A stretch of 64,000 nt of DNA from Gammaproteobacteria bacterium (GTDB lineage Bacteria > Pseudomonadota > Gammaproteobacteria > Eutrophobiales > Eutrophobiaceae): NCBI GenBank assembly GCA_041689615.1, contig JBDNFW010000033.1, positions 258,520-322,519 of the forward strand. Direction: 5' to 3'. A program made the translations under genes and the position numbers. Positions 2,222 to 50,135 of the stretch are shown one piece after another. Position 1 is the stretch's first letter. Every line of letters begins with the position of its first letter. Below the pieces are notes generated by a model. The model ran no database searches. It was not told the origin of the DNA and saw only the letters and a list, made by a program, of their open reading frames with translations.

Positions 2222-2258
2222 AAAAAATTATTGCGGCAAAAGTTGTGTTAAATGGTAA

Positions 2259-3458: not shown

Positions 3459-3467
3459 CGGTGCATT

Positions 3468-10040: not shown

Positions 10041-10078
10041 AACTTTATTACTCGTTCAGATTTATAAGATCTAAACTT

Positions 10079-13000: not shown

Positions 13001-16000
13001 ATTAACAGCAACTACAACAGGTGCAGATTCCGTTTGTTCAGTGATAAATAATTCTGTTATAGATCGTAAGGTTTGCAATTGCCCCAATTCATCTGGACTG
13101 ATTGTTGGTAATTCTGGCATTGCTTCTTGCAATGCCGATAAAATCTCAACACGTTTGATCGAATCGATACCGAGGTCGCTATCAAGATTCATATCCAGTT
13201 CCAACATATCTATTGGATAACCGGTTTTTTCTGAAACGATTTCTAATAAAACTTTAGCGAAGTTGTCATCAACTTGAGTCGCTGCTGCCACAGTTTTTGT
13301 TGTAGTACTTGCGGCAATCCCCACCGGTCTACCGGCAGCAATAAATTCAACAATATGTTGCAAGAACTGGAAGGTGCCTAATTCTTCCGGATTAACAGCT
13401 TGCGACCAGGGTAATTGTTCTTGCAAGGCAGAAAGAATTTCAACACGCTTAATTGAATCAATTCCCAAATCAGTATCCAGACTCATATCGAGACTTAACA
13501 TTTCTAATGGATAACCCGTTTTTTCTGAGACGACTTTTAATAACAAATTATTTATATCAATATCCGTTGTTTCAATTGAAACTGGAGCAGACTGAATGGT
13601 TTCTTCTCTCTCTTTAACAAGCGGCGCTTTGATTAGATTATTTTTTTTTGGCTCAGATTTTATTGATTCTGTTTTTTGTGCCGGCGCACTGACTTGTGTT
13701 AGCTGTTGTACAGCTAAAGGTTGTCCTGACATTAATCGAAATTGCTGATCTAACAATGATTGAATTGATTTTTGTGCTGTCTCCTGTCCTTCAAGATACT
13801 GCTGATGTAAACGCGCGGTTTGTTCCTGCATTTTTTGTAAGGCAATAATGCTTTCCTGCGTAGCTTGTAATAAACCGCTGCTTGCAACAGTGCTAACTGA
13901 TGTTGTTACTTGTTCAGTTTCTTTAGAAGAAATATTTTTTACATCATTCGTCATGGCATTAACATTAATTACTGGTTTAGATTTTGGTTTACTTGCTGGA
14001 CGCGGCTTACGCGGCATTGTGTAATTCGCACCACTTATTGCTATGGTCATTACAGGTTTTACATCTTTAGCCGGTCTTTCCATGGTTGAACATGATGCAT
14101 CCCATTTATTAAGTTCAACTTGTTGTCCATTAACTGCTAACGTTGCTAACACAAGAGCCAAATCATATTGACCTTGCTTCTTGCCGACTGAGGCATCAAT
14201 AGCAATAGTAGTAATAGGTTTGTCTGCAAGAATTGAATTAATTAATCCGGTTAATATTTTTCCCGGGCCTACTTCAACAAAAGTCGTAATACCTTCTGCA
14301 TATAGTTTTTCAACCTGTTCGACAAAACGAACAGGCGATGCTAATTGATATGCTAATAGTTGTTTCGCTGCGTCAACATCTTTTGGATAAGTGTCAGTCG
14401 TTGTATTGGATAAAACCTGATAATTGTTTTTTTCGAACTTAAATGGCGCCAGTGCTTCAGCAAATGGTTTCGCAGCATCAGCAACAAATGAACTGTGAAA
14501 TGCTGCTGCTACAGGTAATTTAATTGCACGTATTTTTTCAGCTTTAGCAACTTTTGCAAAAGCATCCACTTGATCTGTTGAACCTGATAACACAACCTGT
14601 GTTGGTGAGTTATGATTTGCAATAACCAGTTCTAACTTATTTTTTTTCAATAAGGACTCTACTTGTTCATAAGGCGCAACGACTGCCAGCATAGAACCTC
14701 TATCACCTTCACCTGTAGCCATTAACTCACCACGAATTCGTGATAAGCGATGCAATGTTTCAGCGTTATACATGCCTGCTGCCGATAGTGCAGTTAATTC
14801 ACCATAACTATGACCAATCGCAGCTTTTGGCTTAACAGAAAAATAATTTAATACTTCAAGCGCACCAAGACTTACAGCACCAATGGCAGGCTGTGCATTT
14901 TGCGTTTGTCGTAAAGTTTCTTCCTGATGTTTTTGATCAGCTTTGGAAAAAACAGGAATAGGATAAAGCACATCACCCAAGCTTTCTTTTCCTAGGCTTT
15001 CTTTACCCGTCGCTTCTATGAAAATATTGTTTGCTTGTTCTAATACATTTAAAAACTGAGGAAACTGACAGGCTAGATCACGACACATGCCAGTGTATTG
15101 CGAACCTTGTCCCGGGAAAACAAAAGCAATGTTGTCGTTGTTTCTTTCAGAACTGTATGCAACACCATCAGGTCTTTGCCATGCTGATTCAGATGAAGAT
15201 GTTAATTGCTTTTTAATATCAGCAATAAACTTTTGTCTATCTTCATTTGATTTTTCAATGACTATCGTTAAACGATGAGCTGCATCGCTTTTAAAACTTT
15301 GACATGAATCATAAGCAAAAAACCTGAGTTCATTCCATGAATCAAGAATGGTAGACTCTGGTAACTGTTTTATTAATTCTTCTTTTGAATCTACGCTTAA
15401 AGCAATAATTAAAACAGTACCATCCCATTCAATTTCGGTTTTCGTTTCTTCAGCTTCTTCAAGTACACAATGAAAATTGCTGCCGCCAAAACCAAACGAA
15501 CTTAATCCCGCACGACGCGGAGTAGATTGTGTTTTTAACCATGGACGTTTCACGGTATTGAGATAAACAGGTGAAGTACCGGGATTAATAATTTCTAATG
15601 GTTCATCTACTTTAATACTCGGTGGTAAAACTTTATATTTTAAAGCCATGGCCGTTTTAATCAGTCCGGCAACACCGGCTGCAGCTTTGGTATGTCCGAT
15701 CATCGATTTTACTGATCCAATCGCACACCATGTTTCACCATCATTATCTTGTCCATAAACACCGGACAACGCAGTTGCTTCAACAGCATCACCAACTGAT
15801 GTACCTGTACCATGCGCTTCAACTAACTCAATGCTTCTTGGAGTAACATCCGCTTCACGATAGGCATTCCATAATGCTTTGGTTTGACCTGTAGCACTCG
15901 GTGCATAAATGGCATTACCTCTACCATCAGACGAAGAACCGATACCACGTAATACCGCATAGATTTTATCGTTGTCACGTTTAGCATCGTCAAGTCGTTT

Positions 16001-16843
16001 TAATACAACGGCACCAATGCCTTCACCTAAAATTGTTCCATCGCCTTCTTTAGCAAACGGACGACTATTACCTGTTGGCGATAAGGCCGGTGTTTTACTA
16101 AAACACATATACATAAAAATATCGTTAAAGGTATCGACACCACCGGTAATAGCCATATCAACTCTGCCGGCACTCAGTTCCATTGAAGCAAGGTGTAATG
16201 CACTTAATGAACTCGCACAAGCTGCATCAACAACACAATTGGTGCCACCAAAATCAAATCTATTAGCAATACGACCGGCTGCAACATTACCTAATAAACC
16301 AGGGAATGAATTCTCTTGCCAGGGCACATAACCATCAGCAATGCGTTGTACGACATCTTCTGCTGTTTCAGGATCTATTCCAGCATCGGCTAATGCTTTT
16401 CGCCATATTGGATGACCGAGTCGAGCACCTAACGGAATCACTAATTCTAATGTACCGGTCACACCCATAATGACGCTGGTGCGATCACGATCAAATTCAC
16501 GACCATCACCTGCATCTTTAGCAGTGGAATAATTCGCATCTAATAATGCCTGACGCGTAACCACCATACCTAATAATTGTGTGGTATCCGTCGCTTCAAT
16601 ATTGTTCGGACTTAGTCCGTATAACAGTGGGTTAAATTCTTGCGCATTAATAAAACCACCACGTTTAGCATAAGTCATATCTGGTGCAGTTTTATCCGCA
16701 TCAAAATAATCTTCCGGTTTCCAATGCGTATCAGGTATATCAGTTATCGCATCAACGCCTTCACGAATATTGGTCCAATACTCTTGAGGATTATCTGCTT
16801 TAGGAAATAGACAACCAATACCAACAATAGCAAGAGGCTTCAT
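10079..16843 (-). CDS. pfaA: PUFA synthase PfaA: KS-MAT-4xACP-KR-DH
   Basis: 2254 aa. KS motif VVDAACASSLSALH. MAT motif GHSYGE. Four ACP repeats (LGIDSIKRVEILSAL). KR Rossmann motif ISGGARGVTAEVA. PKS-type DH domain at the C-terminus. Confidence 0.92.
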   Translation of the reverse strand: MKPLAIVGIGCLFPKADNPQEYWTNIREGVDAITDIPDTHWKPEDYFDADKTAPDMTYAKRGGFINAQEFNPLLYGLSPNNIEATDTTQLLGMVVTRQALLDANYSTAKDAGDGREFDRDRTSVIMGVTGTLELVIPLGARLGHPIWRKALADAGIDPETAEDVVQRIADGYVPWQENSFPGLLGNVAAGRIANRFDFGGTNCVVDAACASSLSALHLASMELSAGRVDMAITGGVDTFNDIFMYMCFSKTPALSPTGNSRPFAKEGDGTILGEGIGAVVLKRLDDAKRDNDKIYAVLRGIGSSSDGRGNAIYAPSATGQTKALWNAYREADVTPRSIELVEAHGTGTSVGDAVEATALSGVYGQDNDGETWCAIGSVKSMIGHTKAAAGVAGLIKTAMALKYKVLPPSIKVDEPLEIINPGTSPVYLNTVKRPWLKTQSTPRRAGLSSFGFGGSNFHCVLEEAEETKTEIEWDGTVLIIALSVDSKEELIKQLPESTILDSWNELRFFAYDSCQSFKSDAAHRLTIVIEKSNEDRQKFIADIKKQLTSSSESAWQRPDGVAYSSERNNDNIAFVFPGQGSQYTGMCRDLACQFPQFLNVLEQANNIFIEATGKESLGKESLGDVLYPIPVFSKADQKHQEETLRQTQNAQPAIGAVSLGALEVLNYFSVKPKAAIGHSYGELTALSAAGMYNAETLHRLSRIRGELMATGEGDRGSMLAVVAPYEQVESLLKKNKLELVIANHNSPTQVVLSGSTDQVDAFAKVAKAEKIRAIKLPVAAAFHSSFVADAAKPFAEALAPFKFEKNNYQVLSNTTTDTYPKDVDAAKQLLAYQLASPVRFVEQVEKLYAEGITTFVEVGPGKILTGLINSILADKPITTIAIDASVGKKQGQYDLALVLATLAVNGQQVELNKWDASCSTMERPAKDVKPVMTIAISGANYTMPRKPRPASKPKSKPVINVNAMTNDVKNISSKETEQVTTSVSTVASSGLLQATQESIIALQKMQEQTARLHQQYLEGQETAQKSIQSLLDQQFRLMSGQPLAVQQLTQVSAPAQKTESIKSEPKKNNLIKAPLVKEREETIQSAPVSIETTDIDINNLLLKVVSEKTGYPLEMLSLDMSLDTDLGIDSIKRVEILSALQEQLPWSQAVNPEELGTFQFLQHIVEFIAAGRPVGIAASTTTKTVAAATQVDDNFAKVLLEIVSEKTGYPIDMLELDMNLDSDLGIDSIKRVEILSALQEAMPELPTISPDELGQLQTLRSITELFITEQTESAPVVVAVNTTSVINGFADTLLEVVADKTGYPVDMLNLEMNLDSDLGIDSIKRVEILSAIQERIPELPSVSPDDMATLQTLQSIVDVFNISEALPSDQQEQSLPVSDSNLSEVLLEVVADKTGYPVDMLNLEMNLDSDLGIDSIKRVEILSALQDKMPDLPTVSADDLAALQTLQQIIDYMNEQVVTGNKVVTVAAVKEAVVESKKESRIVRSVVHLAELDETGSRQQIDFNKDKEIWITKEGGELADQLATTLKEKGYKTKLINNGQAAIDELGALIICAKVEADKQYLLDTFSLVQRCADSLKKSKGILASITSLGGSFGFNGSIETNPVQAGLYGIIKTADKEWSDVNCKSIDINQASASVDLIQNELFLDGPLEVGLSDEKASQLLLEEEALSDSKQERTALNQDDLIVISGGARGVTAEVAVKLAETYQCSLLLLGRSPEPKNEPEWLSSLSDAASIKKAIMDEAEKNLRPAELEKQYQSILANREIKATLERIEQTGTKVQYSSVDVTDVDAVTNTIDLARAELGNVTGIIHAAGVLADRLIEDKTEEQFNTVYSTKVDGLDNLLTATNNDTLKLIVLFSSTTARLGRKGQVDYAAANEILNKQAVQENHNRKDCKVLSVNWGPWDGGMVTPALKKLFAEEGVGVIGLRAGAEYLINEIESDGPVETVVLGESDNILQKIPLKNYSALSVENSELSLAFERELSVNTHAFLKSHVMNGQAVLPVAIIIEWFAHGALHLNPGMQFQGFDDFRVLKGVTLKADETIRLRILAGNIIHKGDVSLVPVELRSDDLLHASAIMILADSYETNVLPQLKVVNKKYNKTQGEYYKNGQLFHGQDLQGIKEVTHCSDKGIAANVNAAPQPSTWMNQPIRSSWLTDPLILDSAFQMMILWSFEERGIASLPTAISSYRQYQRNYPKDGARIITVVNEKTDHRANASIEFIDSKGQLIALIDCYECVRDSSLQMAFEKNQLSLEAI
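12560..13560 (-). repeat. four tandem ~280-bp intragenic repeats encoding the ACP domains of pfaA
   Basis: Near-identical DNA blocks recur at about 12600, 12880, 13160 and 13445 (gaatcgataccgag.tcgctatc.agattcat...ggataaccggtttt). Confidence 0.85.
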
Positions 16844-16854
16844 CTGAGTACCTC

Positions 16855-17090
16855 CAAAAATGCACTTTTCCCGCGATCGCCGCGTCGGCTCCGTACTTGA
16901 ATACTCACAGAGTACGATGTTCTCATGTATGTTTTATACATTGCGATTCTCGGCAATTGCTCCCGGCATTGCTCTACCTCCTGCATCCATGCAGTCGTCC
17001 GCGTATGCATCCTTGCACTTATGTACAGGGATGTACTGTATACCGGTTTTGCAGGAGCAAAAACCGGACACGAAAAAATCACTATTTCTT
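16855..17090. repeat. intercistronic repeat element copy A (pfaD/pfaA spacer), flanked by 11-bp inverted repeats CTGAGTACCTC (16844-16854) and GAGGTACTCAG (17091-17101)
   Basis: Shares the core aaaaatgcactttt...atactcacagagtacgatgt.ctcatgtat with the copies at 49991-50120 and 32480-32592. The flanking inverted repeat contains the pfaA SD (GGAGG). Confidence 0.6.
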
Positions 17091-17128
17091 GAGGTACTCA
17101 GTTTTTTAATGTGTTTCTTTGACATAAC

Positions 17129-18817
17129 TTACTCAGATAAATAACTCTTAATTGTTTCTTGTTGCATAGGATGGAATTGCGTTAATGCAACAGGAAGTTC
17201 AACACCTTGCTTAAGCAAACCATTAATTCGATATAAAACAGCAGCACCAAATAAAATATTCATTGCCACAGTCACTGCATTTCTATTATTTGTTTCAGAT
17301 AAAAAAGTTTCGCGCGTCCATTCATTAAACGCTCCCATTGCTGGGCCACACCAAACTTGATAATCAACTTGGCGATCTTCAACGCCGGCATTTGCCCAAC
17401 GTGAAGACAGTCCTAAATACCATCGAAAAATTAATGCCATTTTATGTTTTGCATCTTTATGCGCTTTTTCAACTTGACGCGGATCTCGTTCAGTAAAAAA
17501 TTCTTCTGTCTTTTGCCATACTTCAGCTAATGACATTTTAAAAATTGTTTTTTCCAGATTCGCTTTTTCTGTTTCAGAAATTTCTTCTATCGATCCGTAT
17601 TTTTTATAAATGTCATAAAGCTTATTACCGCGCATCGCAAACATGGTGCCGCGTTTTAATACTTGTAACTTCACACCCATTTCAAACATATCTACTGCTG
17701 GTGCCATAGTGACGTCAGCTTGTTCTGCATTGGCTAACATTTCTCTAACAATGTCAGAGGAACCTGATTCTTTGCAGGCTTGATTAACAGTACCGGTAAC
17801 AATGTAAGCCGCACCCATAGCAAACGCACCTAATGCTGAAGCAGGTATTGCAATCCCTCCGGCAGCACCAACACGCAGTGGTTTTTCATAATTATGTTTT
17901 GCCTGATATTGATCGCGTAGTGATAACATCGTTGGTAATAATGTAATAGCAGGTCGATTGTCTGTATGACCACCCGAGTCAGCTTCGACCGTTAAGTCTT
18001 GCGCCATCGGAATATGTTTGGCCAAGTCTGCTTCTTCTTTTGTTATCGAACCCTGCTCTAATAATTTTTCCAATAATTTTTCAGGTGGAGGACTAAACCA
18101 TTTGCTTGCAAGCTCTACCCTCGATGCCTTAGCTATGATCCTATTAGGAACAATAATATTACCCTGCTTATCTTTATGAATTCCTTTCACTCGATAACGT
18201 ACAACTGGCAAAGTCAGTTTCATATAAGCAGATGTTTCAACCAGTGTAACTCCGTATTTTAAATAGAGATCAACAACCGCATCTTCATGTCCTATTTCAT
18301 TCGGGCTATAAATAAGGTTAAAGCAAAATGTTTTATCGCCTAAGGAAGTTTGCAGACGTTTAATTGCTGTTTCTATTTCAGTTAAAGACAAACCCGCTGC
18401 ACCGAATGATGCCAACATGCCTTCGCTTGCTAACGCTTCAACCAATTCAACAGAAGCAATGCCATTTGCCATTGAGCCTGCCATATAAGGATAATCAATT
18501 TGATAATCCTGACAAAAATTCTGATCACCTAAGGCTTTAATGGTTTGTGCCGAAGCAATGCCACGTAAACGATACTGTTTGTCGTCTTTTTGATAGTCAT
18601 CACCCTGACTATCAAACTGAATAGATCCACCCAAGGCAATTGCAGATCTGGATTTATTTTCAACTATACAAAATGGCACATCTAACTGATAAAGCTGTTC
18701 AGGCAATTTTTCCAAATCAGATAGACTAGCGCGACTATCCGATTGCCAAACATTTTGAGAATGACGCTTTGTTTCCGTCGAACGAGACGGACTAATAATT
18801 TCTGGTATGGAACTCAC
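17129..18817 (-). CDS. pfaD: PUFA synthase enoyl reductase PfaD (nitronate monooxygenase-like fold)
   Basis: 562 aa. YPYMAGSMANGIASVELVEALASEGMLASFGAAGL region is typical of PfaD-type ER. It lies upstream of and co-directional with pfaA. Confidence 0.85.
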   Translation of the reverse strand: MSSIPEIISPSRSTETKRHSQNVWQSDSRASLSDLEKLPEQLYQLDVPFCIVENKSRSAIALGGSIQFDSQGDDYQKDDKQYRLRGIASAQTIKALGDQNFCQDYQIDYPYMAGSMANGIASVELVEALASEGMLASFGAAGLSLTEIETAIKRLQTSLGDKTFCFNLIYSPNEIGHEDAVVDLYLKYGVTLVETSAYMKLTLPVVRYRVKGIHKDKQGNIIVPNRIIAKASRVELASKWFSPPPEKLLEKLLEQGSITKEEADLAKHIPMAQDLTVEADSGGHTDNRPAITLLPTMLSLRDQYQAKHNYEKPLRVGAAGGIAIPASALGAFAMGAAYIVTGTVNQACKESGSSDIVREMLANAEQADVTMAPAVDMFEMGVKLQVLKRGTMFAMRGNKLYDIYKKYGSIEEISETEKANLEKTIFKMSLAEVWQKTEEFFTERDPRQVEKAHKDAKHKMALIFRWYLGLSSRWANAGVEDRQVDYQVWCGPAMGAFNEWTRETFLSETNNRNAVTVAMNILFGAAVLYRINGLLKQGVELPVALTQFHPMQQETIKSYLSE

Positions 18818-19107
18818 TGTATTTAATCAATAAACTCTTCTGAATATGTAATGGCGGAAAGGACAATGCTTATTTATTTACATCCATCTGTTCTGATTGT
18901 AATGTGCGCGTCCTGAACAGCCCTAATTATTGAATAATATCATTTTTTTCGGGCAAAACCTTGTAGCATCGATGCTCTAAACGATTAAGATTTAGTGACT
19001 ACTTGTTCAAAATGAATGCTGAATTTAGTTATTTTGATGTGATTAACTAAAAAATAAAACCACAAAACATACTAAACCATTGTTTTTATAAGAGATATTT
19101 ATTTTTC

Positions 19108-20175
19108 ATGAAATCCAGAGAAGAATTTCAAACCAAACTTGATGACCTTGCCTATCAAAACAAGATTTTGCAGCATGTCTCTCGAACTTTTGCCTTAACT
19201 ATTCCGCAATTGCCTGAACCATTAAGCACGGTCGTAGCAAATGCCTACCTTTTGTGTCGTATTGCCGACACGATCGAAGATGATAAGAGCATGTCGGCTG
19301 AACAAAAAAAGGAATCTGCCGAGCTTTTTATCAAAGTTGTTAAGGAAAATGCTGAAGCTGAAGCATTTGCCGAAACCCTGTTTCCATTATTGTCACCGAC
19401 AGCAACTGAAGCTGAACATGATCTGATTTCCAATACGTCTCCTGTAATTAGAATTACTCACAGTTTCAATCAACGCCAACGCGCTGCTCTAGAACGTTGT
19501 GTCAAAATCATGGCCGATGGCATGGTAATGTATCAGGATGCTGAAACCCTTGATGGCGTTTCCGATCAGAGGGATATGGATCAATACTGTTATTACGTTG
19601 CGGGCGTTGTTGGCGAAATGTTGACTGAACTTTTCTGCGATCATTCGCCTGAAATCGATGCACATCGTGATGAGATGATGAAATTGGGAGTGTCATTTGG
19701 TCAGGGTTTGCAAATGACCAATATATTGAAAGATATCTGGGAAGATCATGAGCGCGGAGCTTGCTGGTTACCTCGCGATGTATTCGAAAAATACGGTATC
19801 GATATTCGTCATAAAGTACCAGGTAAAATGGGTGAAGGTTTTAATGAAGCTTTAATAGAATTGCTCGGTGTTGCCCATGCACATGTCTATAACGCTTTGC
19901 GCTATACTTTAATGATTCCCGAAAAAGAAAAAGGATTACGAAAATTCTGTTTGTGGGCCTTGGGTATGGCGGTATTAACTCTAGAAAAGATCAGACGACA
20001 GCCTGATTTCACGGAAGGTCAGCAAGTCAAAATCAGTCGTCGCAGTGTTAAAGTCACCCTCTTTTTGACAAGTCTTTTCGTTGGCCAAAATAGAATATTA
20101 AGTTATCTTTTCCAATTCAGTGGACGTCGTTTGCCTATGGCAAATATTCATGCGAAACTCTGCCAAAATCAGTGA
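19108..20175 (+). CDS. sqs: squalene synthase, single-enzyme eukaryote-like type
   Basis: 355 aa. SRTFALTIPQL...YLLCRIADTIEDD and YCYYVAGVVGEMLT match squalene/phytoene synthase motifs. It is the first gene of the hopanoid operon. Confidence 0.8.
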   Translation: MKSREEFQTKLDDLAYQNKILQHVSRTFALTIPQLPEPLSTVVANAYLLCRIADTIEDDKSMSAEQKKESAELFIKVVKENAEAEAFAETLFPLLSPTATEAEHDLISNTSPVIRITHSFNQRQRAALERCVKIMADGMVMYQDAETLDGVSDQRDMDQYCYYVAGVVGEMLTELFCDHSPEIDAHRDEMMKLGVSFGQGLQMTNILKDIWEDHERGACWLPRDVFEKYGIDIRHKVPGKMGEGFNEALIELLGVAHAHVYNALRYTLMIPEKEKGLRKFCLWALGMAVLTLEKIRRQPDFTEGQQVKISRRSVKVTLFLTSLFVGQNRILSYLFQFSGRRLPMANIHAKLCQNQ

Positions 20176-20274
20176 TATACATGACTATAACGCTGAAACA
20201 ACAAGGAGAATAAGGCGGCTTTCGACAGGGCAGTATGGTCTATCTGACTTCTTGCCCCACCTGTATTAAATAAC

Positions 20275-22221
20275 ATGACTTTTGAAACTAATAACGATAA
20301 TACGCCCAATCCAACGCTCGGAGAGTCGAACTCGAAGAAGCCTGCGATTAATTTAGACGAAGCGATTCAATCTGCTAAAAATAAATTACTCGAGCAACAA
20401 CAAGATGATGGGCATTGGGTCTATGAACTCGAAGCTGATTGCACTATTCCTGCTGAATATATATTAATGAATCATTTCGTCGATGAAGTCGATGATGATA
20501 CAGAACAAAAAATTGCCCAATACTTGCGTGACCAACAAAATGAAGATGGTGGTTGGTCGCTTTATACCGCTGGTGATTTTGATATTAGTTGTGCGGTAAA
20601 AAGCTACTACGCATTAAAAATCGTTGGTGATAATCCTCAAGAAGAACATATGGTCCGCGCAAGGAATATCATTTTAAATCATGGTGGCGCTGCTCGTAGT
20701 AATGTCTTTACCCGAATTTTGATGGCTCTGTTTCAACAAGTACCGTGGCGTGCGACACCTTTTATTCCGGCTGAAGTAATCATTCTTCCAAAGTGGTTTC
20801 CGTTTCATATCGACAAAGTATCTTATTGGTCACGTACAGTCATGGTGCCATTGTTTATTTTGTGCACCATAAAACCAAAAGCTGTAAACCCACGTGGTGT
20901 TGATATAAGAGAACTTTTTATAATACCGCCTGAAGATGAACAAAATTATTTTAAAGTAACAACTCCGCTGACTCGAGCGTTTCTAATACTCGACCACTTA
21001 GGTCGTTTAGCAGAAAAGATCGTACCTAAATTTGTACGACAATATTCTATTGATAAATGCGAACAATGGTCTCTTGCTCGAATGAACGAAGAATTTGGTA
21101 TCGGCGGTATTTTTCCTGCCATGGTTAATGTGTTTGAATCTTTAGTTATTCTTGGTTATAAAAAAGATCACCCGGCACGAATACAGGCACGACAAGCTAT
21201 TGATGCTTTACTAGTCAAGCGCGGTAACACGATGTATTGCCAACCTTGTGTTTCTCCTGTTTGGGATACTTGTTTAGCGGCGCAATCTCTTATCGAAACA
21301 GAAAATCAAAACGTCAGTACAGAAATAGAACATTCACTTGACTGGCTTAAGGATAGACAACTTAGCGATGAACCCGGTGACTGGCGCATCCCCAGAGCCA
21401 ATCTTGCTGGCGGCGGCTGGGCCTTTCAATATAGTAATTACTACTTCCCTGACCTCGATGATACTTCCATGGTGGCCTGGGCGATGCACAGAACTGGAAA
21501 TGATAAATATTCAGAACCGATTCAACGTGCAGCAAACTGGGTTGCCGGTATGCAATCGAATGGTGGTGGTTTCGGATCGTTTGAAGTAAATAACACGCAG
21601 TATTATTTAAACGCGATTCCTTTTGCGGATCATGGTGCTTTATTAGATCCACCCACAGCCGATGTGACCGGACGTGTTATTGCATTACTTAGTCTTGCCG
21701 ATAAAGAAAAATATAGCTCTGTTATTAAAGATGCGATTAATTTTATAAAATCTGATCAGGAAGAAGACGGTTCCTGGTTTGGTCGTTGGGGTACGAATTA
21801 TATATACGGCACCTGGTCGGTGCTAACCGCACTTGAACTTGCTGATGAAGATCTACAACAAGACTATATAAGAAAAGCTGTCTCGTATTTACAAGGCATG
21901 CAAAATGAAGATGGTGGTTGGGGCGAAAGTAATGATAGCTATTATCCTCCAAAACATTATCGTCCTTTTGAAAGCACCGCATACCAAACAGCATGGGCAT
22001 TACTTGCTTTATTGGCGGTTGGAGAAGCTGAAACAGAAACGGTTAGAAAAGGGATTGATTATTTGATCTCTAATCAATCCAATGATGGTCATTGGTATAA
22101 TGATAGTTATACTGCTCCAGGTTTTCCTCGCGTTTTCTATTTAAAATATCACGGCTACACAAAATATTTTCCGCTTTGGGCGTTAGCTCGTTACAGAAAC
22201 CTGTTGCACAATAAGGTTTGA
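20275..22221 (+). CDS. shc: squalene-hopene cyclase
   Basis: 648 aa. Multiple QxxxGxW (QW) repeats (QNEDGGW x3). DLDDTSMV matches the DxDDTA catalytic motif. Confidence 0.9.
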   Translation: MTFETNNDNTPNPTLGESNSKKPAINLDEAIQSAKNKLLEQQQDDGHWVYELEADCTIPAEYILMNHFVDEVDDDTEQKIAQYLRDQQNEDGGWSLYTAGDFDISCAVKSYYALKIVGDNPQEEHMVRARNIILNHGGAARSNVFTRILMALFQQVPWRATPFIPAEVIILPKWFPFHIDKVSYWSRTVMVPLFILCTIKPKAVNPRGVDIRELFIIPPEDEQNYFKVTTPLTRAFLILDHLGRLAEKIVPKFVRQYSIDKCEQWSLARMNEEFGIGGIFPAMVNVFESLVILGYKKDHPARIQARQAIDALLVKRGNTMYCQPCVSPVWDTCLAAQSLIETENQNVSTEIEHSLDWLKDRQLSDEPGDWRIPRANLAGGGWAFQYSNYYFPDLDDTSMVAWAMHRTGNDKYSEPIQRAANWVAGMQSNGGGFGSFEVNNTQYYLNAIPFADHGALLDPPTADVTGRVIALLSLADKEKYSSVIKDAINFIKSDQEEDGSWFGRWGTNYIYGTWSVLTALELADEDLQQDYIRKAVSYLQGMQNEDGGWGESNDSYYPPKHYRPFESTAYQTAWALLALLAVGEAETETVRKGIDYLISNQSNDGHWYNDSYTAPGFPRVFYLKYHGYTKYFPLWALARYRNLLHNKV

Positions 22222-22931
22222 GTAAGCTTGGTATTATTGCAGCCCTACCTGCTGAAGCAGCTTGTCTATATAATAAAAAACTAACTGTTCTTTCACCCAT
22301 AGAAATTCAGAAAGATGTCTTTTTGTGTTTATCAGGTATGGGGTATGAAGCAGCTTGTGGAGCTGCAAAAAAGTGTCTGGATTTCAAAGTAGATGCCTTA
22401 ATCAGTTGGGGGGTTGCTGGCGCAATAGAGTCTTCACTTAACTCGGGTGATTTAATTTTCGCTGATTCGATAATTGCTCAAGATAAAACTTTTCAAACAT
22501 CGACTGAATGGAAAAATAAATTACTGGCACACTTTCAGAAAACCCATACTAATGTGTTAAGTAGCGATATTGCTTCAAGTAAAGAGATATGTGCCTTAAC
22601 AACCGATAAAAATAATTTATTACATAAAACAGGCGCTGGCGCTGTCGATATGGAAAGTGCGGCTATTGCAGAAATAGCCATTAATAATCATCTCGATTTT
22701 TTGGTCATTCGTGCCATTGCTGACAAGGCTAATACCGTTATTCCAGAAGCGGTGTTAAAACACACAGATAATCTGGGCAATCCTGAAATATTAAAATTTG
22801 TATTGTCGTGTATTTTTAAGCCAGCACAAATTCGGGAGATTTTTATATTGGCAAAAAGCTACAAAATAGCTTTAAAAACATTAAGCAATATCGCCTCAGA
22901 TTTAAAAAAACAGAATTTCTTTTATACATAA
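22218..22931 (+). CDS. hpnG: hopanoid-associated phosphorylase (PNP/MTA nucleosidase family), HpnG-like
   Basis: 237 aa, N-terminus MSKLGIIAALPAEA. The TTG start overlaps the shc stop (gtTTGA). Hopanoid cluster context. Confidence 0.65.
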   Translation: MSKLGIIAALPAEAACLYNKKLTVLSPIEIQKDVFLCLSGMGYEAACGAAKKCLDFKVDALISWGVAGAIESSLNSGDLIFADSIIAQDKTFQTSTEWKNKLLAHFQKTHTNVLSSDIASSKEICALTTDKNNLLHKTGAGAVDMESAAIAEIAINNHLDFLVIRAIADKANTVIPEAVLKHTDNLGNPEILKFVLSCIFKPAQIREIFILAKSYKIALKTLSNIASDLKKQNFFYT

Positions 22932-23001
22932 CCTGGCCGCTTGTTATAAAATCTAAGCTGGTTTATAAGGAAACATAATCCCCCACTAGAAAGATATTAA
23001 T

Positions 23002-23748
23002 ATGAAAATAAGCAAAGAACAAATTGAAGAGTTTAAATCCACCGGCTTTCTCGTTATTCGTAAGTTGTACGATACGGAAAGAATGAAGGAAATTATTACC
23101 TGGACAGAAGAAGTACGCAATTATCCTGAAGTCCCTGGCAACGTCATGATGTATTTTGAACAGAGTAAATTAGAACCGGGAAAAAGAATTATATCCCGTA
23201 TAGAAGATGTCGAACCTTTCCATCAAGGATTCAGTGAGCTTTTTATGCGCGGTGAGATACAGCAAATTACATCTCAATTATTCGATGATAAGGCAATTTT
23301 GTTTAAGGATAAAATAAATTTCAAGATGCCGGGTGCAGATGGTTTCAAAGCGCATCAGGATGTACAGGCCGGCTGGGATCGTTATTCCAAGTTACATATC
23401 ACTGCTTTAGTAAGCGTTGATCCTTCCACCATTGAAAATGGCTGTCTGGAAGTGGCTAATGGTTATAATAATAAAGGACTTATAGGAGAACAGTGGGCAC
23501 CATTAGAAGAAGATGGCCTAGACTATATCGCACTACCAACAGAACCGGGTGATGCTGTTTTCTTTGATTCTTATGCCCCTCACCGTTCAAAAGCAAACCT
23601 GAGTAATGGTCAACGCCGCGTTCTGTATGTCACATACAACGCTGCGGCCGAAGGTGACCATCGTAGAAAATATTATGATGACAAACGTCTTAGCTATCCA
23701 CCAGACATTGAACGGGACACGGACAAAGAATACATATTCAGAGTTTAA
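23002..23748 (+). CDS. PhyH-family Fe(II)/2-oxoglutarate dioxygenase, uncharacterised, embedded in the hopanoid operon
   Basis: 248 aa. HQD (HxD) followed by a downstream His (APHRS) and an Arg, the typical phytanoyl-CoA dioxygenase facial triad arrangement. Confidence 0.6.
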   Translation: MKISKEQIEEFKSTGFLVIRKLYDTERMKEIITWTEEVRNYPEVPGNVMMYFEQSKLEPGKRIISRIEDVEPFHQGFSELFMRGEIQQITSQLFDDKAILFKDKINFKMPGADGFKAHQDVQAGWDRYSKLHITALVSVDPSTIENGCLEVANGYNNKGLIGEQWAPLEEDGLDYIALPTEPGDAVFFDSYAPHRSKANLSNGQRRVLYVTYNAAAEGDHRRKYYDDKRLSYPPDIERDTDKEYIFRV

Positions 23749-23763
23749 TCGATATAACTAAAA

Positions 23764-26388
23764 ATGAGTAAATCTCATTCATCATATCTAGATCGCTGGA
23801 TAATTAACTGGGTGCAATTCGTTGAGCGCTATCGAATTGCGATCATCATCAGCTTTGTCGCTCTCACTATTTTTTCAATTTTTTATATAAAAGATAACCT
23901 CGGTGTAAGTACAGATACAACCGACATGTTGTCGGAAGAACTGGCTTGGCGAAAACTTGATATTGAATACGAAAAACAATTTCCTCAATTTAATGACAAT
24001 GTTCTTGTTGTTATCGAATCAAACACGCCGGACCAAGCTACTGATACAGCAATAAAATTACATTCTGCTTTAAAAGAAAATCCTACATTAATTAGTAATA
24101 TTTATTATCCAAATTTATTACCTTATTTTCGTCAATCTGCTTTTTTATTTTTTGATGATGAAGAGTTACAAGATCTGGCAGATCAATTAGCAACCATACA
24201 AGCCTTTCTAGGAACCTTATTACAAGATAAAAATTTACGTGGCTTATTCACTATGTTGACTGATGCACTTCAGTACAAAGTGGATGGCGAAAAGATTGAA
24301 TTGAAACCACTATTACTAGAAATCAATCATGCATTAGAAAATGAAAAATATAATGTCTCATGGCAACATTTGATGAGTTCAGATAAAAGTCTAAAACCTG
24401 TTTATCGAGAATTTATCGTGTTACAAACGCTAGAGTCTGAAGAAGAACTTTTGCCCGGCCAAGATGTCCTCGCGCATATAAGAACCGTTATCAATTCACT
24501 TTCTTTGAATAATGAATCTGTACGGATACGTTTAACCGGTGGTACCGCACTGTCCTATGAAGAATTAAAAAGTGTTTCCGAAGCAAATATTCAAGCTATT
24601 GTTATTTCATTCATTCTGGTCGCCATTATTTTACTGATTGGTCTAGGCTCAGTCTGGCTGGTAGTGGCATCACTCATCACACTAATTTTCGGCTTAACTG
24701 CAACTACGGCTTTCGCGGCAGCAACTGTAGGCGAACTTAATCTTATTTCCGTTGCCTTTGCTGTGTTGTACATCGGTCTTGGTATTGATTTCACCATACA
24801 TTTGATATTACGTTATCGTGAACAAGTTATTTTATCGGGAGAACCTAATAATGCATTGAAAATATCAATGTCTTATATTTTTCGCTCTTTAATACTCTGC
24901 TCCATCACAACCGCGATTGGTTTTTATTCATTTATACCAACGGACTATCAAGGTGTAGCTGAACTCGGCTGGATTGCAGGCAGCGGCATGTTCATCAGTA
25001 TTCTTTTCACATTGACCTTATTACCTGCTTTATTAAGTTTAAAGCCTTACAAAGAAAGAGAAAAAACGAATAACCGTGGAAATCATTTAATTACTTTTTT
25101 AACCACCCTGCCCTACAAATATTCAAAACAGATATTAATATTTACACTCATTATTTTAATTGGGTTTATTAGCCAACTCTATAGAGTTAGTTTTGATATA
25201 AATACGCTTAACTTGCAAGATCCTGAAAATGAATCGGTGCAAACCTATCGTGATTTATTAAAAGACAGTGATTCTTCGCCTTGGAGCAGTGTTTTATTAA
25301 AAGAAAGTAGAAGTGAGGCTATCGCCGCGATAAAAGAAATTGAACAACTTGATTTGGTTGACAAGGTTATATGGTATGAAGATTTACTTCCTGAAGATCA
25401 AGAAGATAAATTATTCATTATTGATGAAATAAATCTATTTATGGGAATACTCTCTACAGACGAGACAAACGCAGAGATAAATAACAGCGATAGAATAAAT
25501 GCCATACAAAAACTTATAACAAAATTAGATTATTTTTCCAGTCATGAATTAGAGTCGAATCCTGAGCTATATAGCGAAATTAGAACACTAAAAACATATT
25601 TATCTATAATTCTAGATAACTCTTCTGATAACAAAAATTTATTGTCACTAGAAAAACAATTACTATCTAATCTTGATGGTCGAATTCATTCGTTGAACGA
25701 TGCTTTAAACGCCGAACAAGTCGAACTCAGTGATATCCCTGCGATTGTTCATGATAGATGGGTAAGTCATAAACACTATAAAATAGAAATTTTTCCAAGA
25801 GAAGATTTGAACGATAACGCAGCAATGGAACGTTTCGTTAACCAACTACAAGCCTATGATAATACCGTTATTGGTTCTCCTATTATTAATATTGAAGCGG
25901 GTAGTGCCGTCATCACTGCCTTCAAAACTGCACTCACTTATGCCTTAATTGCTATTGCATTATTGCTACTTGTTTTAATAAAACGGAAATCGGATGCGGT
26001 AATTATCCTAATCTCAGTACTCGTTGGCGCTGTTTTTACATTTGGCTTTATGTTGATATTTAATATCCCGCTTAACTTTGCCAATATTATTGGGCTCCCT
26101 TTATTACTTGGTATCGGCGTAGACAGTGGTATTCATATTGCTGATCGATTTCGTCAGGAACAAGGAACCAATAAAAATATTTTTATGACCAGCTCTTCTC
26201 GTGGCGTCATTGTCAGTTCTTTAACAACTATTTGCAGCATTGGCAACCTCGCTTTTTCTTCTCATACGGGTACGGCCAGCATGGGATTGCTATTAACTTT
26301 AGGTCTTGCCTCAATGATGATATCAACTATGATGATCCTTCCTGCCTTTCTTATATGGCAAAATTTATTGAAAAAAATAGCTTTATGA
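23764..26388 (+). CDS. hpnN: RND-superfamily (MMPL-like) hopanoid transporter, HpnN-like
   Basis: 874 aa. Two 6-TM bundles with large periplasmic loops. Hopanoid cluster context. Confidence 0.75.
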   Translation: MSKSHSSYLDRWIINWVQFVERYRIAIIISFVALTIFSIFYIKDNLGVSTDTTDMLSEELAWRKLDIEYEKQFPQFNDNVLVVIESNTPDQATDTAIKLHSALKENPTLISNIYYPNLLPYFRQSAFLFFDDEELQDLADQLATIQAFLGTLLQDKNLRGLFTMLTDALQYKVDGEKIELKPLLLEINHALENEKYNVSWQHLMSSDKSLKPVYREFIVLQTLESEEELLPGQDVLAHIRTVINSLSLNNESVRIRLTGGTALSYEELKSVSEANIQAIVISFILVAIILLIGLGSVWLVVASLITLIFGLTATTAFAAATVGELNLISVAFAVLYIGLGIDFTIHLILRYREQVILSGEPNNALKISMSYIFRSLILCSITTAIGFYSFIPTDYQGVAELGWIAGSGMFISILFTLTLLPALLSLKPYKEREKTNNRGNHLITFLTTLPYKYSKQILIFTLIILIGFISQLYRVSFDINTLNLQDPENESVQTYRDLLKDSDSSPWSSVLLKESRSEAIAAIKEIEQLDLVDKVIWYEDLLPEDQEDKLFIIDEINLFMGILSTDETNAEINNSDRINAIQKLITKLDYFSSHELESNPELYSEIRTLKTYLSIILDNSSDNKNLLSLEKQLLSNLDGRIHSLNDALNAEQVELSDIPAIVHDRWVSHKHYKIEIFPREDLNDNAAMERFVNQLQAYDNTVIGSPIINIEAGSAVITAFKTALTYALIAIALLLLVLIKRKSDAVIILISVLVGAVFTFGFMLIFNIPLNFANIIGLPLLLGIGVDSGIHIADRFRQEQGTNKNIFMTSSSRGVIVSSLTTICSIGNLAFSSHTGTASMGLLLTLGLASMMISTMMILPAFLIWQNLLKKIAL

Positions 26389-27371
26389 AGACATTAGTCA
26401 CAGGCGCAAATGGATTCATTGGCTCTGCTGTCGCACGCTTATTATTAGATAAAGGTCATGACGTACGCGTATTAGTTCGCCCTAACTCAGACAAGCGTAA
26501 CTTTGAAGGACTTGAGCTCGAAATAATTGAAGGTGATTTAAACGATAATGAATCCTTAAAACGTGCTGTTTCTGGCTGTAACACACTCTTTCATCTCGCT
26601 GCTGATTATCGTTTATGGATACCTGATCCAGATAACATGTACAAAACAAATGTTGATGGTACACGTAACCTTATTATTGCCGCAACTGAAGCTAACGTAG
26701 ATAAAATTGTTTATACCAGCAGTGTTGCTACTCTGGGAATAAATAAAGATGGGACGGCTTCTGATGAAACAACACCTGTTTCACTTGAAGAGATGACCGG
26801 TCATTACAAGCGCTCTAAATTTTTAGCAGAACAAGAAGTCAATAAACTCATAAAAGAACAATCTTGTCCTGTCACCATTGTGAATCCTTCGACGCCAGTT
26901 GGTCCACGAGATATTAAACCGACACCAACGGGAAAGATCGTGCTCGACACGATTCGCCATCGCATGCCGGCTTATGTCGACACCGGTTTGAATATCGTTC
27001 ACGTAGATGATGTTGCAAAAGGACATCTACTGGCGATGGATAAAGGCGAAATTGGAGAGCGATATATTCTCGGCGGCGATAATATGACCTTGGCATCGAT
27101 ACTGGAATATATCTGCGTCAGTCAGGGTATGTCTCCACCAACAATTAAATTACCGCATAATCTGGTATTACCCATTGCCTGGTTTATGGAACGTATTGCT
27201 AATATCACACATAAAGAACCTAGAGCCACGGTTGATAGTGTCAAAATGTCGAAAAAAATGATGTTCTTTTCAAGTGAAAAAGCAAAAGAAAAACTGGGAT
27301 ACCAATCACGTCCAGGTATTGAAGGTTTTAAGGATGCTATCGATTGGTTTAATGCAGAAAACTACTCTTAA
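26385..27371 (+). CDS. hpnA: NAD-dependent epimerase/dehydratase, HpnA-like
   Basis: N-terminus MKTLVTGANGFIGSAVARLL (Rossmann fold). The ATG overlaps the hpnN stop (ATGA). The 26232 start in the ORF track is an over-extension. Confidence 0.75.
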   Translation: MKTLVTGANGFIGSAVARLLLDKGHDVRVLVRPNSDKRNFEGLELEIIEGDLNDNESLKRAVSGCNTLFHLAADYRLWIPDPDNMYKTNVDGTRNLIIAATEANVDKIVYTSSVATLGINKDGTASDETTPVSLEEMTGHYKRSKFLAEQEVNKLIKEQSCPVTIVNPSTPVGPRDIKPTPTGKIVLDTIRHRMPAYVDTGLNIVHVDDVAKGHLLAMDKGEIGERYILGGDNMTLASILEYICVSQGMSPPTIKLPHNLVLPIAWFMERIANITHKEPRATVDSVKMSKKMMFFSSEKAKEKLGYQSRPGIEGFKDAIDWFNAENYS

Positions 27372-27410
27372 GACTCAAATAAAAATGCACTATTTTAAAA
27401 AGACTCTTTT

Positions 27411-27453
27411 AAAAAAAGCCTTTCCTAAAAACACAACGTATTTTTAGGAAAGG
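27411..27453 (-). terminator. rho-independent terminator hairpin (13-bp perfect stem cctttcctaaaaa/tttttaggaaagg), followed by a T-run on the minus strand and preceded by an A-run
   Basis: Perfect inverted repeat at 27419-27453 in the convergent spacer between hpnA and the minus-strand MnhD-like gene. Confidence 0.5.
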
Positions 27454-27622
27454 TGCGCCATCCATTGCGCGGGTTCATCCGTGACTGTTTCCATACAAGA
27501 ATATACGTCCTTGTGAGTAGAACTATAAATGTATTAATCGCGAATAGATATTATCGCAAAAGAGGACATGCAGTGAGTTAGGGTCTACTCACAAATAGGG
27601 AGAGCTAAAGATGAGCCTTTGT

Positions 27623-29293
27623 TTAAAGCAGAAAATAAGATAAGGAAATAATAAATACCACCATGATTAATCCCATACCCATTGCCAGAGAAAACTGAAT
27701 ATTTAATTTATTATCAACATAGTGACCAAGTTTCAAACCTGAATATTTATGACTTATGCCACTTTGAAGCAGACAAAGCTTCTTCAAAATACAATCTGAG
27801 ATTGTTTTGCCAAACTTTCTGTAAAACCAATCAAAATCAAGACTGATGGTTAATGTTCTTTTCATTAATGGCAACATGACAAAGAAAGCTAGACCTGAAA
27901 ACAAAAGCAACTGTAGTTGTGTCAATGTATGTGCTGCAGTGTATGGTACATAATTCACTTCATAAGGTAGCATTGCATATAACAAATTTGGAAAAACACC
28001 CAACAAAATACAGATGACCGCAAAAAATATCATACCCATCTGCATATTAAGCGGAGGATCATCTGGTCTCAAACCACTGTCTTTCTGAAAGAAAACAAAC
28101 CACGGAAATTTAATACCTGCATGTAAAAACACACCGGCGGAAGCTGCTTGCAACAGTAACCACACCCATAATAAATGTTCATCAACAGAAGCCTGCGTCA
28201 CCATAGACTTACTAACAAAGCCGGAGGTAAGAGGAAAAGAAGAAATCGCTAACGCACCGATAATCCCACAGACAGCAGTAACGGGCATAGTCTGAATTAA
28301 GCCGCCTAAATCAGTACATTTACGTTTACCGGTCATATATAAAACAGATCCGGCAGACATTAATAATAAAGCTTTATATATAATGTGTGTAAATGCATGA
28401 GCTGCAGCACCATTTAATGCCATCTCGGTACCAATGCCGATACCACAAAGCATGAACCCCACCTGATTAATAATGCTATAGGCAAGAATTCGACGCATAT
28501 CATTTTCAAGTAAGGCGTAAATGATCCCGTAAAAAATCATAAATAAACCGATATACACTAATAACTCTGTTCCGGGAAAACCTCTCAACAAAACATACAC
28601 TGCAGTTTTCGTCGTAAAGGCACTTAGAAACACAGTGCCACTAAATGAAGCTTCAGGATAAGCATCGGCCAACCATGCTGTTAATGGTGGTGCGCCTGCA
28701 TTTAATAAAAAGCCGCAAAGGATTAGCCACGTCGCAATACTATTAGGTTGCATCGCTGTAAATAATATTGAACCAGTTTCATTAACGTAGGCTGATATAC
28801 CGCACATCAATATGACACCACCTAATAAATGAATAACGATATAACGCATACCCGCTCGTCGAGAATTTTCATTCTGTGCCGACCAGATAACCAGTGTTGA
28901 AGATAATGCCATCAATTCCCAGAAAATAAACAACGTCAGAAGATCGCCTGCAAGTACGACAGACATCGCACCACCGGCATAAATAAAAGCTGCAGCTAAT
29001 TCTTTTGAACTAGCTTGCTTACAGCAAAACAAGCTTCCGGTGAAAACAGTAATAGAAAATACTGTAATAAATAATCGACTCAGTGCATCAAGATTAATAA
29101 GTGTTAATTCGAATCCAAGATATTGAATCGAACAAGCCGAACCAAATGACATATCCCAGACACTGGCTAAAGCTAGACAGGGAATTAATAAAACGAAGAG
29201 TGTTCTTTTTGTTCCATGTAAAAAAGGAATTAATAAGCCTGATAAGATTAGTAACAAACCTGGATGAAATAAACTACATGTCATAGTAATCAT
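27623..29293 (-). CDS. MnhD/NuoN-family proton-pumping antiporter-like membrane subunit
   Basis: 556 aa polytopic protein. WLADAYPEAS and TKTAVYVLLR resemble MrpD/NuoN motifs. Confidence 0.65.
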   Translation of the reverse strand: MITMTCSLFHPGLLLILSGLLIPFLHGTKRTLFVLLIPCLALASVWDMSFGSACSIQYLGFELTLINLDALSRLFITVFSITVFTGSLFCCKQASSKELAAAFIYAGGAMSVVLAGDLLTLFIFWELMALSSTLVIWSAQNENSRRAGMRYIVIHLLGGVILMCGISAYVNETGSILFTAMQPNSIATWLILCGFLLNAGAPPLTAWLADAYPEASFSGTVFLSAFTTKTAVYVLLRGFPGTELLVYIGLFMIFYGIIYALLENDMRRILAYSIINQVGFMLCGIGIGTEMALNGAAAHAFTHIIYKALLLMSAGSVLYMTGKRKCTDLGGLIQTMPVTAVCGIIGALAISSFPLTSGFVSKSMVTQASVDEHLLWVWLLLQAASAGVFLHAGIKFPWFVFFQKDSGLRPDDPPLNMQMGMIFFAVICILLGVFPNLLYAMLPYEVNYVPYTAAHTLTQLQLLLFSGLAFFVMLPLMKRTLTISLDFDWFYRKFGKTISDCILKKLCLLQSGISHKYSGLKLGHYVDNKLNIQFSLAMGMGLIMVVFIISLSYFLL

Positions 29294-49987: not shown

Positions 49988-49990
49988 AAA

Positions 49991-50120: not shown

Positions 50121-50135
50121 TTTTATAAGGTTCCT

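Follow-up and report, generated by a model that had tools for sequence, protein, structure and literature searches.

A PhyH-family oxygenase conserved in proteobacterial hopanoid operons as a candidate 2-aminoethylphosphonate 1-hydroxylase

Introduction

PhnY* (2-aminoethylphosphonate dioxygenase, EC 1.14.11.46; Gimesia maris PhnY*, NCBIfam model NF052437), an Fe(II)/2-oxoglutarate (2OG) oxygenase of the PhyH-type fold, hydroxylates its substrate at the carbon atom in alpha position to phosphorus. The PhnY* homologue FzmG of the fosfazinomycin pathway, likened here by its description, puts the hydroxylation of the alpha-carbon in a phosphonate to biosynthetic use. In this study, we analyse a gene for a PhyH-family oxygenase found at positions 23002-23748 (+ strand) of a 64,000-nucleotide stretch of gammaproteobacterial DNA (contig JBDNFW010000033.1 of assembly GCA_041689615.1; the whole stretch is referred to as the window), where it forms part of a hopanoid operon. 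The oxygenase has its fold and its predicted chemistry in common with PhnY*; it differs in being only ∼35% identical to the PhnY*-type homologue that is paired with PhnZ, in never being paired with PhnZ itself, and in a context of lipid and head-group biosynthesis rather than of catabolism. With FzmG it would share the biosynthetic use, whereas FzmG serves a diffusible natural-product pathway of actinomycetes and oxidises phosphonoacetaldehyde as well.

Gene clusters for phosphonolipids constitute the second described system of relevance. The name 'Group 1 phosphonolipid' (Yu et al. 2013) is given to a set of seven genes, and Li & Horsman 2022 (PMC8942020) describe as the 'Burkholderiales_CDP-OH' family clusters composed of Ppm(-PntC), phosphonopyruvate decarboxylase (Ppd), 2-aminoethylphosphonate (AEP) transaminase (AEPT), a second PntC, an alpha-ketoglutarate/Fe(II) oxygenase and two phospholipid-type genes. 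Such clusters make up 36% of the phosphoenolpyruvate (PEP) mutase neighbourhoods of that survey; a 1-hydroxy-AEP lipid is predicted for them, and the lipid has never been isolated. A version of the cluster in Nostoc lists hpnL (PMC5987646).

The enzymes described for hopanoid tailoring (HpnP, HpnR, HpnO, HpnI/J/K, HpnH/G) are radical S-adenosylmethionine (SAM) enzymes, an aminotransferase, glycosyltransferases and a nucleosidase, none of them an Fe/2OG oxygenase, and the hpn toolkit has no oxygenase assigned to it; the oxygenase considered here is, like them, an operon member, co-inherited with shc, hpnG and hpnN. A preliminary description of the window had stated that the known hpn toolkit lacks a PhyH-type enzyme, and this is consistent with the literature searched. 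A search for hopanoids together with PhyH or dioxygenase returned nothing relevant, a Burkholderia paper in which AEP and hopanoids both occur proved to be irrelevant, and neither dioxygenases nor phosphonates come up in the main text of preprint 10.1101/2025.07.29.667474 or in that of a survey of hopanoid genes in Alphaproteobacteria from 2025. Independent hints of a link are found in other publications: Guzman et al. 2021 observed, in Roseomonas, that shc is linked to the PEP mutase gene (PepM) and raised the idea of an 'undiscovered terpene-phosphonate', and in Table S7 of the same preprint PepM (phi 0.43, p = 3e-58) and Ppd (phi 0.38) are among the annotations that correlate with shc across the Gammaproteobacteria of GTDB, a correlation that is probably driven by Burkholderiales. 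In its Table S8, a CDP-alcohol phosphatidyltransferase is one of the unnamed genes that most often neighbour shc.

Results

An intact oxygenase constantly placed in hopanoid operons

The gene at 23002-23748 opens with ATG and encodes a protein of 248 amino acids, of which residues 11-207 match the whole PF05721 (PhyH) profile of Pfam (E = 2.6e-17, 64.2 bits vs a gathering score of 22). The iron triad H118-Q119-D120 plus H194 and the 2OG-binding arginine R205 align with the HxD motif, the distal histidine and the arginine of proline hydroxylase H11, and H118, D120, H194 and R205 are unvaried in 50 close homologues as well as in 81 broader ones. An AF2 model (pLDDT 84.5, pTM 0.84) shows the double-stranded beta-helix fold of the PhyH type, which Foldseek matched to 7dt0, 9c9n, 3obz, 5nci and 2a1x (E ∼1e-14, TM ∼0.7). 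The earlier assignment to the PhyH family of Fe/2OG dioxygenases, with its HxD...H triad intact, is thus borne out by Pfam, alignment and AF2/Foldseek. An annotation or open reading frame (ORF) artefact is ruled out because the homologues share length and N-terminus, and a decaying remnant because the ratio of nonsynonymous to synonymous substitution (dN/dS) is ∼0.03-0.06. Within the window subclade the oxygenase (0.03-0.06) compares with shc at 0.02-0.07, hpnG at 0.11-0.21 and hpnN at 0.08-0.14, all figures being approximate since dS is saturated; the oxygenase is under strong purifying selection and is not a relic.

A scan of one genome per species gave 80 loci with homologues at 51-92% identity (numbered here with the prefix L), 77 of them full-length. 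Genes for shc, hpnG, hpnH or hpnN occur in 58 of these 77 and HpnC or HpnD in three more (L050, L052, L059), so that hopanoid genes accompany the oxygenase in 61/77 loci. In the 46 loci from gammaproteobacterial metagenome-assembled genomes (MAGs; L001-L046), hpnN follows the oxygenase directly without exception and hpnG directly precedes it in 43, the other three being truncated at contig edges; sqs upstream of shc is kept in L001-L047. A different order, X-dxs-hpnC/D/E-shc-hpnG with hpnH and ispH opposite (X denoting the oxygenase), characterises an alphaproteobacterial clade of ∼53% identity, while in further alphaproteobacterial loci the oxygenase adjoins HpnC or HpnD and a betaproteobacterial locus reads hpnH-sqs-shc-X. 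There are accordingly at least three arrangements of the oxygenase with hpn genes, differing among the gamma, beta and two alpha lineages. The oxygenase is a genuine and widely conserved member of hpn clusters in Gamma-, Beta- and Alphaproteobacteria. The co-occurrence with hpn genes that the preliminary description had proposed to examine is strongly positive, and the absence from homologous hpn operons, which it had named as evidence to the contrary, is not what the 61 of 77 loci show. Only three informative loci, L060, L063 and L078 (Rokubacteria-type), and two tiny contigs carry neither hopanoid nor phosphonate markers. L060 (DASRWT010000101.1) is binned as the archaeon 'Candidatus Nitrosocosmicus', and its PhyH homologue is nearly identical in the tree to that of the Rokubacteria locus L078; the archaeal assignment is probably a binning error.

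Wherever a gammaproteobacterial locus has sufficient flanking sequence, the oxygenase lies between hpnG and hpnN, and in the alphaproteobacterial clade it lies beside dxs-hpnCDE-shc; this placement speaks for an enzyme that tailors the hopanoid directly, by hydroxylating or desaturating the ring system or the C5 side chain (e.g., toward pentol/hexol-type or unsaturated bacteriohopanepolyols, BHPs). The same explanation can draw on the lack of AEP genes near the oxygenase in the window and its closest relatives, on a constraint as strong as that on shc and on the several known BHP oxidations for which no enzyme is known. The further distribution of the orthologues, set out in the following, argues against it.

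Orthologues in gene clusters for AEP

All neighbouring ORFs of the 80 loci were clustered and the recurrent unnamed clusters annotated. In loci without shc, the recurrent neighbours are a PEP mutase fused to a nucleoside triphosphate (NTP) transferase (PepM-NTase; TIGR02320, 393 bits), Ppd (TIGR03297, 425 bits), AEPT (TIGR03301, 355 bits), a second NTP-transferase, a small CDP-alcohol phosphatidyltransferase (PT) and HpnL (TIGR03476, 311 bits). PEP mutase, Ppd and AEPT stand beside the orthologue in 13 loci, and the homologues in the loci with this AEP module are full length and 51-64% identical to the window protein. The clustering is seen for orthologues in L041, L047, L048, L051, L055, L068, L069, L073, L075, L087 and L091, among which L048, L051, L068 and L069 are AEP-only loci devoid of shc. 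An NTase-like match at the edge of L021, surrounded by generic sugar-nucleotide genes, was set aside as uninformative. Homologues of the window gene hence sit in the core of the Group 1 phosphonolipid/Burkholderiales_CDP-OH set (PepM-PntC, Ppd, AEPT, PntC, CDP-alcohol PT, HpnL, oxygenase), whereas the window oxygenase stands alone in a hopanoid operon, the other six genes not being there.

In two loci a single ORF combines NTP_transf_3 with PhyH (L055:9191-10720 and L059:9104-10744). The fusion to a cytidylyltransferase-type domain, together with gene adjacency, suggests that the oxygenase may act near the step of CMP activation. A similar ORF of 546 amino acids is present in L063, where the N-terminal 300 residues have no Pfam match.

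Some Group 1-type clusters carry a different oxygenase in place of the PhyH-type one. Between PT and NTase, at L088:3872-4618, L092:1970-2686, L096:2345-3076 and L097:9490-10209, there is an unrelated HalD-like 2OG oxygenase with weak matches to HalD and 2OG-FeII_Oxy_3 and with no BLAST relation to the PhyH protein, in AEP clusters that are otherwise equivalent. The HalD-like enzyme appears to be a non-orthologous replacement of the PhyH oxygenase.

Direct tailoring of the hopanoid is difficult to bring in line with these contexts. One orthologous group, without fixed residue differences, occurs in the four AEP-only loci and fused to a nucleotidyltransferase, and the unrelated oxygenase replaces PhyH specifically within the PT-NTase-PepM cassettes. 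The kinship to PhnY* counts likewise against it, as does the build of the enzyme, a compact protein of 248 residues whose nearest folds belong to enzymes for small free zwitterions; and two broad surveys of hopanoid genes have brought up no dioxygenase candidate. We therefore consider direct tailoring unlikely. The preliminary description had suggested that the enzyme could hydroxylate or desaturate the ring or the side chain of the hopanoid, or else a bacteriohopanepolyol head group. The first part is disfavoured by the PhnY* kinship, the AEP and cytidylyltransferase context and the zwitterion-hydroxylase folds; only action on a head group, predicted to be a phosphonate, is compatible with the evidence.

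Hybrid clusters of hopanoid and AEP genes

The two gene sets are interleaved in several genomes. L041 reads, on one strand, sqs-shc-hpnG-X-hpnN-hpnA-hpnL-NTase-PepM-Ppd-AEPT, and L087 has the same order, which continues with dxs, ispH, hpnH, GT2, MlaC (hpnM-like) and MlaA (hpnS-like), placing the AEP genes inside the hopanoid cluster; L047 is a further hybrid locus. In L055, L073 and L075 (Acetobacteraceae, Rhodopila), the AEP module adjoins an HpnN-like resistance-nodulation-division (RND) transporter, which in L075 is a true HpnN (931 bits vs a cutoff of 752). L090 (JAXMMZ010540318.1, 4398-21656) has shc, hpnG, hpnN, hpnA and hpnH around PT-NTase-PepM-Ppd-AEPT, together with an HpnP/HpnR-like B12 radical SAM methylase, and has no oxygenase; its phosphonate head group would stay unhydroxylated. 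Hydroxylation as an optional step of head-group tailoring fits both L090 and the HalD-like substitute in L088, L092, L096 and L097.

The MAG CAYZJI01 is the most revealing case. Its contig 9 (L037) carries hpnL-sqs-shc-hpnG-X-hpnN-PT-hpnA, and its contig 8 (L094) carries NTase-PepM-Ppd-AEPT beside dxs-hpnH-GT2-MlaC, with oxygenase, PT and hpnL not there. Going by metagenomic binning, the phosphonate module of CAYZJI01 is divided in two, and either part lies within one half of the hopanoid genes. A hopanoid-only locus therefore does not imply that AEP genes are absent from the genome.

Relation to phosphonate hydroxylases

The best NCBIfam match of the oxygenase, over its full length, is not to a general PhyH model but to methylphosphonate hydroxylase PhnY* (NF052437; 176.9 bits, E = 5e-52), and close homologues bear the name '2-aminoethylphosphonate dioxygenase' from the IMG pipeline. 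A homologue of 35% identity on a Rhodococcus plasmid (L082) overlaps an HD-domain gene, which is the catabolic PhnY*-PhnZ arrangement, and a homologue of 43% identity on an R. rhizogenes plasmid lies between head-group transfer genes of the LicC and LicD types. From an alignment of 81 sequences, ∼57 positions emerge as conserved to at least 97%, and the basic or polar ones among them include R62, R66, E68, H74, K102, K104, N106, K108, Q119, Q122, W125, W165, D184, S190 and R206. The PhnZ-paired homologue keeps the basic residues, sharing R62, R66, E68, H74, K102, K104, N106 and K108, and differs at Q122, W125, W165, D184 and S190. The solved PhyH-type structures (proline hydroxylase H11, GriE, MysH, EctD, PHYHD1, human PHYH) have fold, metal triad and 2OG-binding arginine in common with the oxygenase; they are only 15-23% identical, act on other substrates, and none is phosphonate-binding. 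Those nearest in the Foldseek comparison use free proline, leucine, ectoine and a mycosporine-like compound, and as a lead from the modelled fold, a small polar substrate would fit.

Sequence kinship to PhnY* and the automatic IMG name could also indicate a catabolic enzyme performing the first step of oxidative AEP degradation, in which 1-hydroxy-AEP is cleaved by PhnZ to glycine and phosphate for phosphorus supply, and the marine setting, where AEP is a common phosphorus source (PMC8316502), would suit such a function. The window, however, contains no phosphonate transporter, the oxygenase sits in a lipid operon, and no PhnZ-like HD-domain gene was found in the window, in the 80 genome loci or in the loci derived from PepM, L082 excepted; tblastn with the L082 HD protein gave no match in the window or in any locus except L082 itself. 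The sole PhnY*-PhnZ pair found is the one on the Rhodococcus plasmid, at 35% identity and with the five residue differences just named, which fall on otherwise invariant positions. Because PhnZ is absent from the window and from all loci but L082, we reject the catabolic assignment, which we regard as very improbable.

Is the window copy the same enzyme?

When the gammaproteobacterial hopanoid clade (n = 45) is compared with all other sequences, most of them AEP-linked (n = 33), no fixed difference emerges at any position. In a neighbour-joining tree rooted on the PhnZ-paired outgroup, the contexts with NTase, PepM and PT are basal, the hybrid L041 branches off basally in the hopanoid clade of Gammaproteobacteria, and nearby hpnL and then PT are lost stepwise toward the window subclade. 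With 51-64% identity and no fixed clade differences, the window protein is, on comparison of sequences, an orthologue of the AEP-module oxygenase.

A number of observations weigh against carrying the AEP function over to the window gene. The NF052437 score of 176.9 bits falls far under the equivalog cutoff of 500 and therefore does not establish the substrate of the oxygenase. The biosynthetic clade is without any characterised enzyme, and a search of PDB sequences yielded no PhnY* structure, so that comparison of binding residues lacks a template. The tree carries no support values, and dS is saturated; the assignment of L037 and L094 to one genome rests on metagenomic binning. Above all, the 64-kb window is without PepM, Ppd, AEPT, an NTase of this type, PT, HpnL and HpnH, and the loci of the window subclade (L001-L004) are without AEP-module genes within 10 kb. 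Large contigs of the subclade gave no PepM or PT on cross-matching of search results, a weak test: the best 120 matches of PepM-NTase were all at least 66% identical, none of them on subclade contigs, and at least one relevant genome, that of L004, is apparently outside the protein collection. The PT matches from the same comparison fell on contigs of several PhyH homologues, none from the window subclade. As AEP genes occur neither in the window nor within 10 kb in L001-L004, our confidence in the AEP assignment for the window gene is no more than moderate.

The missing genes could have a different meaning, namely that the link to AEP was lost in the window lineage and the enzyme now acts on another small amine or zwitterionic head group, such as an ethanolamine- or amino-bearing BHP terminus or one of the phospho-ethanolamine type. 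It is in keeping with this alternative that neither the window nor, within 10 kb, L001-L004 have genes for AEP, PT or HpnL, and that the oxygenase is strongly constrained despite the stepwise loss of PT and hpnL toward its subclade. Nitrogen-containing composite BHPs that have no known biosynthesis do exist, e.g., ethenolamine-bacteriohopanetetrol (2025 alphaproteobacterial survey). A change of substrate, however, normally leaves some substitutions at conserved positions, and no clade-specific ones are found; moreover, CAYZJI01 exemplifies a related genome that has a similar hopanoid-only locus and its AEP genes on another contig. We judge a changed head group improbable for the window enzyme.

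The operon and its surroundings in the window

The preliminary description had placed the gene tightly packed in a hopanoid operon between hpnG and hpnN, which profile matches and spacing confirm. The order is sqs-shc-hpnG-X-hpnN-hpnA in one direction, all on the + strand. The run begins with squalene synthase (sqs, 19108-20175; Pfam SQS_PSY, 198 bits) and squalene-hopene cyclase (shc, 20275-22221; TIGR01507, 789 bits vs a cutoff of 431), followed by an HpnG-like nucleoside phosphorylase/nucleosidase (22218-22931; TIGR03468, 166 bits against a cutoff of 187; Pfam PNP_UDP_1) and, beyond the oxygenase, by the hopanoid RND transporter HpnN (23764-26388; TIGR03480, 842 bits vs a cutoff of 752) and the hopanoid-associated HpnA, which resembles short-chain dehydrogenases/reductases and sugar epimerases (26385-27371; TIGR03466, 504 bits). 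For hpnA, the mechanical ORF opens at 26232; the likely ATG is at 26385, and TIGR03466 matches from ORF residue 52. The HpnG-like gene at 22218-22931 is the fastest-evolving of the operon (dN/dS 0.11-0.21), and its product is only 26-35% identical to alphaproteobacterial HpnG.

The oxygenase is separated by 70 nt from hpnG and by 15 nt from hpnN, and shc/hpnG and hpnN/hpnA overlap by 4 nt each. The likely start of hpnA overlaps the stop of hpnN (ATGA, 26385-26388), the start of hpnG overlaps the stop of shc in the same manner, and these start/stop overlaps suggest translational coupling along the operon. No terminator-like site was found on the + strand from sqs through hpnA. A 16-bp hairpin at 27419-27453, reported as a terminator-like site on the - strand and located between the end of hpnA and a convergent gene (27623-29293), is the sole strong site of this kind within 18700-27700, and the transcription unit likely ends there.

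Adenosylhopane synthase (hpnH) was found neither in the window nor within 10 kb of the oxygenase in the marine gammaproteobacterial loci L001-L046. If HpnG is to have its substrate, hpnH must sit elsewhere; we therefore predict a second hpn locus in the genome of the window, which may also hold AEP genes. In L087, L088, L092 and L094, hpnH belongs to a second block with dxs, GT2, MlaC and MlaA.

Directly upstream of the hopanoid operon and divergent from it, the - strand (1337-18817) carries a set of the polyunsaturated fatty acid (PUFA) synthase type, consisting of an alpha/beta hydrolase, a KASIII-like protein, a PfaC-like protein (KS, FabA x3; 2190 aa), a PfaA-like protein (KS-AT-4xACP-KR-DH; 2254 aa) and a PfaD-like enoyl reductase. 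A PfaD homologue is in the same position in ∼17 related loci (L001-L021, L026), and PUFA set and hopanoid operon together look like a conserved membrane-lipid island. Some 22 kb downstream (49322-51502) there is a trio of SCO1/SenC, a PCuAC copper chaperone and phosphatidylserine decarboxylase, which in ∼10 related loci (L008 and nine others) follows hpnA by ∼2 kb. A chemoreceptor of 1060 residues (42154-45336, - strand) with globin, several PAS, HAMP and MCP signalling domains is encoded inside a complete chemotaxis cluster (CheA, CheB, CheD, CheR, ParA-like).

Discussion

Based on the collective evidence, the window gene probably encodes a biosynthetic AEP 1-hydroxylase, that is, the oxygenase of the Group 1 phosphonolipid module placed in a hopanoid operon. 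We infer what the substrate is, which carbon is hydroxylated, and that AEP is produced or obtained by the organism of the window. With Fe(II), 2OG and O2, the enzyme would add a hydroxyl to the phosphorus-bearing carbon of AEP, giving 1-hydroxy-AEP; candidate substrates are free AEP, CMP-activated AEP, or AEP already on an acceptor. The module of seven genes (PepM-cytidylyltransferase, Ppd, AEPT, second cytidylyltransferase, CDP-alcohol PT, HpnL, oxygenase) is interleaved with hopanoid genes in many Proteobacteria; in the scenario proposed, only the oxygenase would be left in the window lineage, within the sqs-shc-hpnG-X-hpnN-hpnA operon. Kept there, the oxygenase would therefore be co-expressed with hopanoid synthesis and export. 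As regards the type of enzyme, the proposal remains on familiar ground, with a phosphonate alpha-hydroxylase that resembles PhnY* and FzmG and whose presence in Group 1 phosphonolipid clusters has been predicted. What has gone essentially undescribed is that the oxygenase sits so constantly in hopanoid operons and, more broadly, that AEP-module and hpn genes are interleaved.

A more far-reaching idea is that the Group 1 phosphonolipid is itself a hopanoid conjugate, a phosphono-hopanoid, and hence a new class of lipid. We put it forward tentatively and consider it rather doubtful. CMP-(1-hydroxy-)AEP would be moved onto a hydroxyl of the bacteriohopanepolyol by the CDP-alcohol transferase and/or HpnL, HpnN would export the product, and the window gene would install the 1-hydroxyl. 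To our knowledge, no phosphorus-containing BHP has been reported. The co-localisation could equally reflect outer-membrane lipids that are co-regulated and share HpnN-type export without being joined in a conjugate.

The importance of these findings lies in bringing together the orphans of two fields. In phosphonate research, the lipid made by an abundant family of PEP-mutase clusters has never been observed; hopanoid research has the conserved HpnL and HpnA and a frequent CDP-alcohol transferase neighbour, all without function. Across Alpha-, Beta- and Gammaproteobacteria, hopanoid and AEP genes are found interleaved, split between loci and inherited together, and the oxygenase is what connects them most persistently. 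A vague hint of a 'terpene-phosphonate' thus becomes a prediction open to testing, for which the genes are defined and candidate masses and culturable carriers can be named. Under the conservative interpretation alone, the gene still adds to the PhnY* family a new member with a biosynthetic role, and a well-supported one. If the phosphono-hopanoid proposal were true, the orphan hpn gene HpnL, and perhaps HpnA, would gain a function. Confirmation of the prediction would bring a phosphorus-containing hopanoid, or else a co-regulated phosphonolipid, into the biology of the bacterial outer membrane, with bearing on marine phosphonate cycling and on the interpretation of hopanoid biomarkers.

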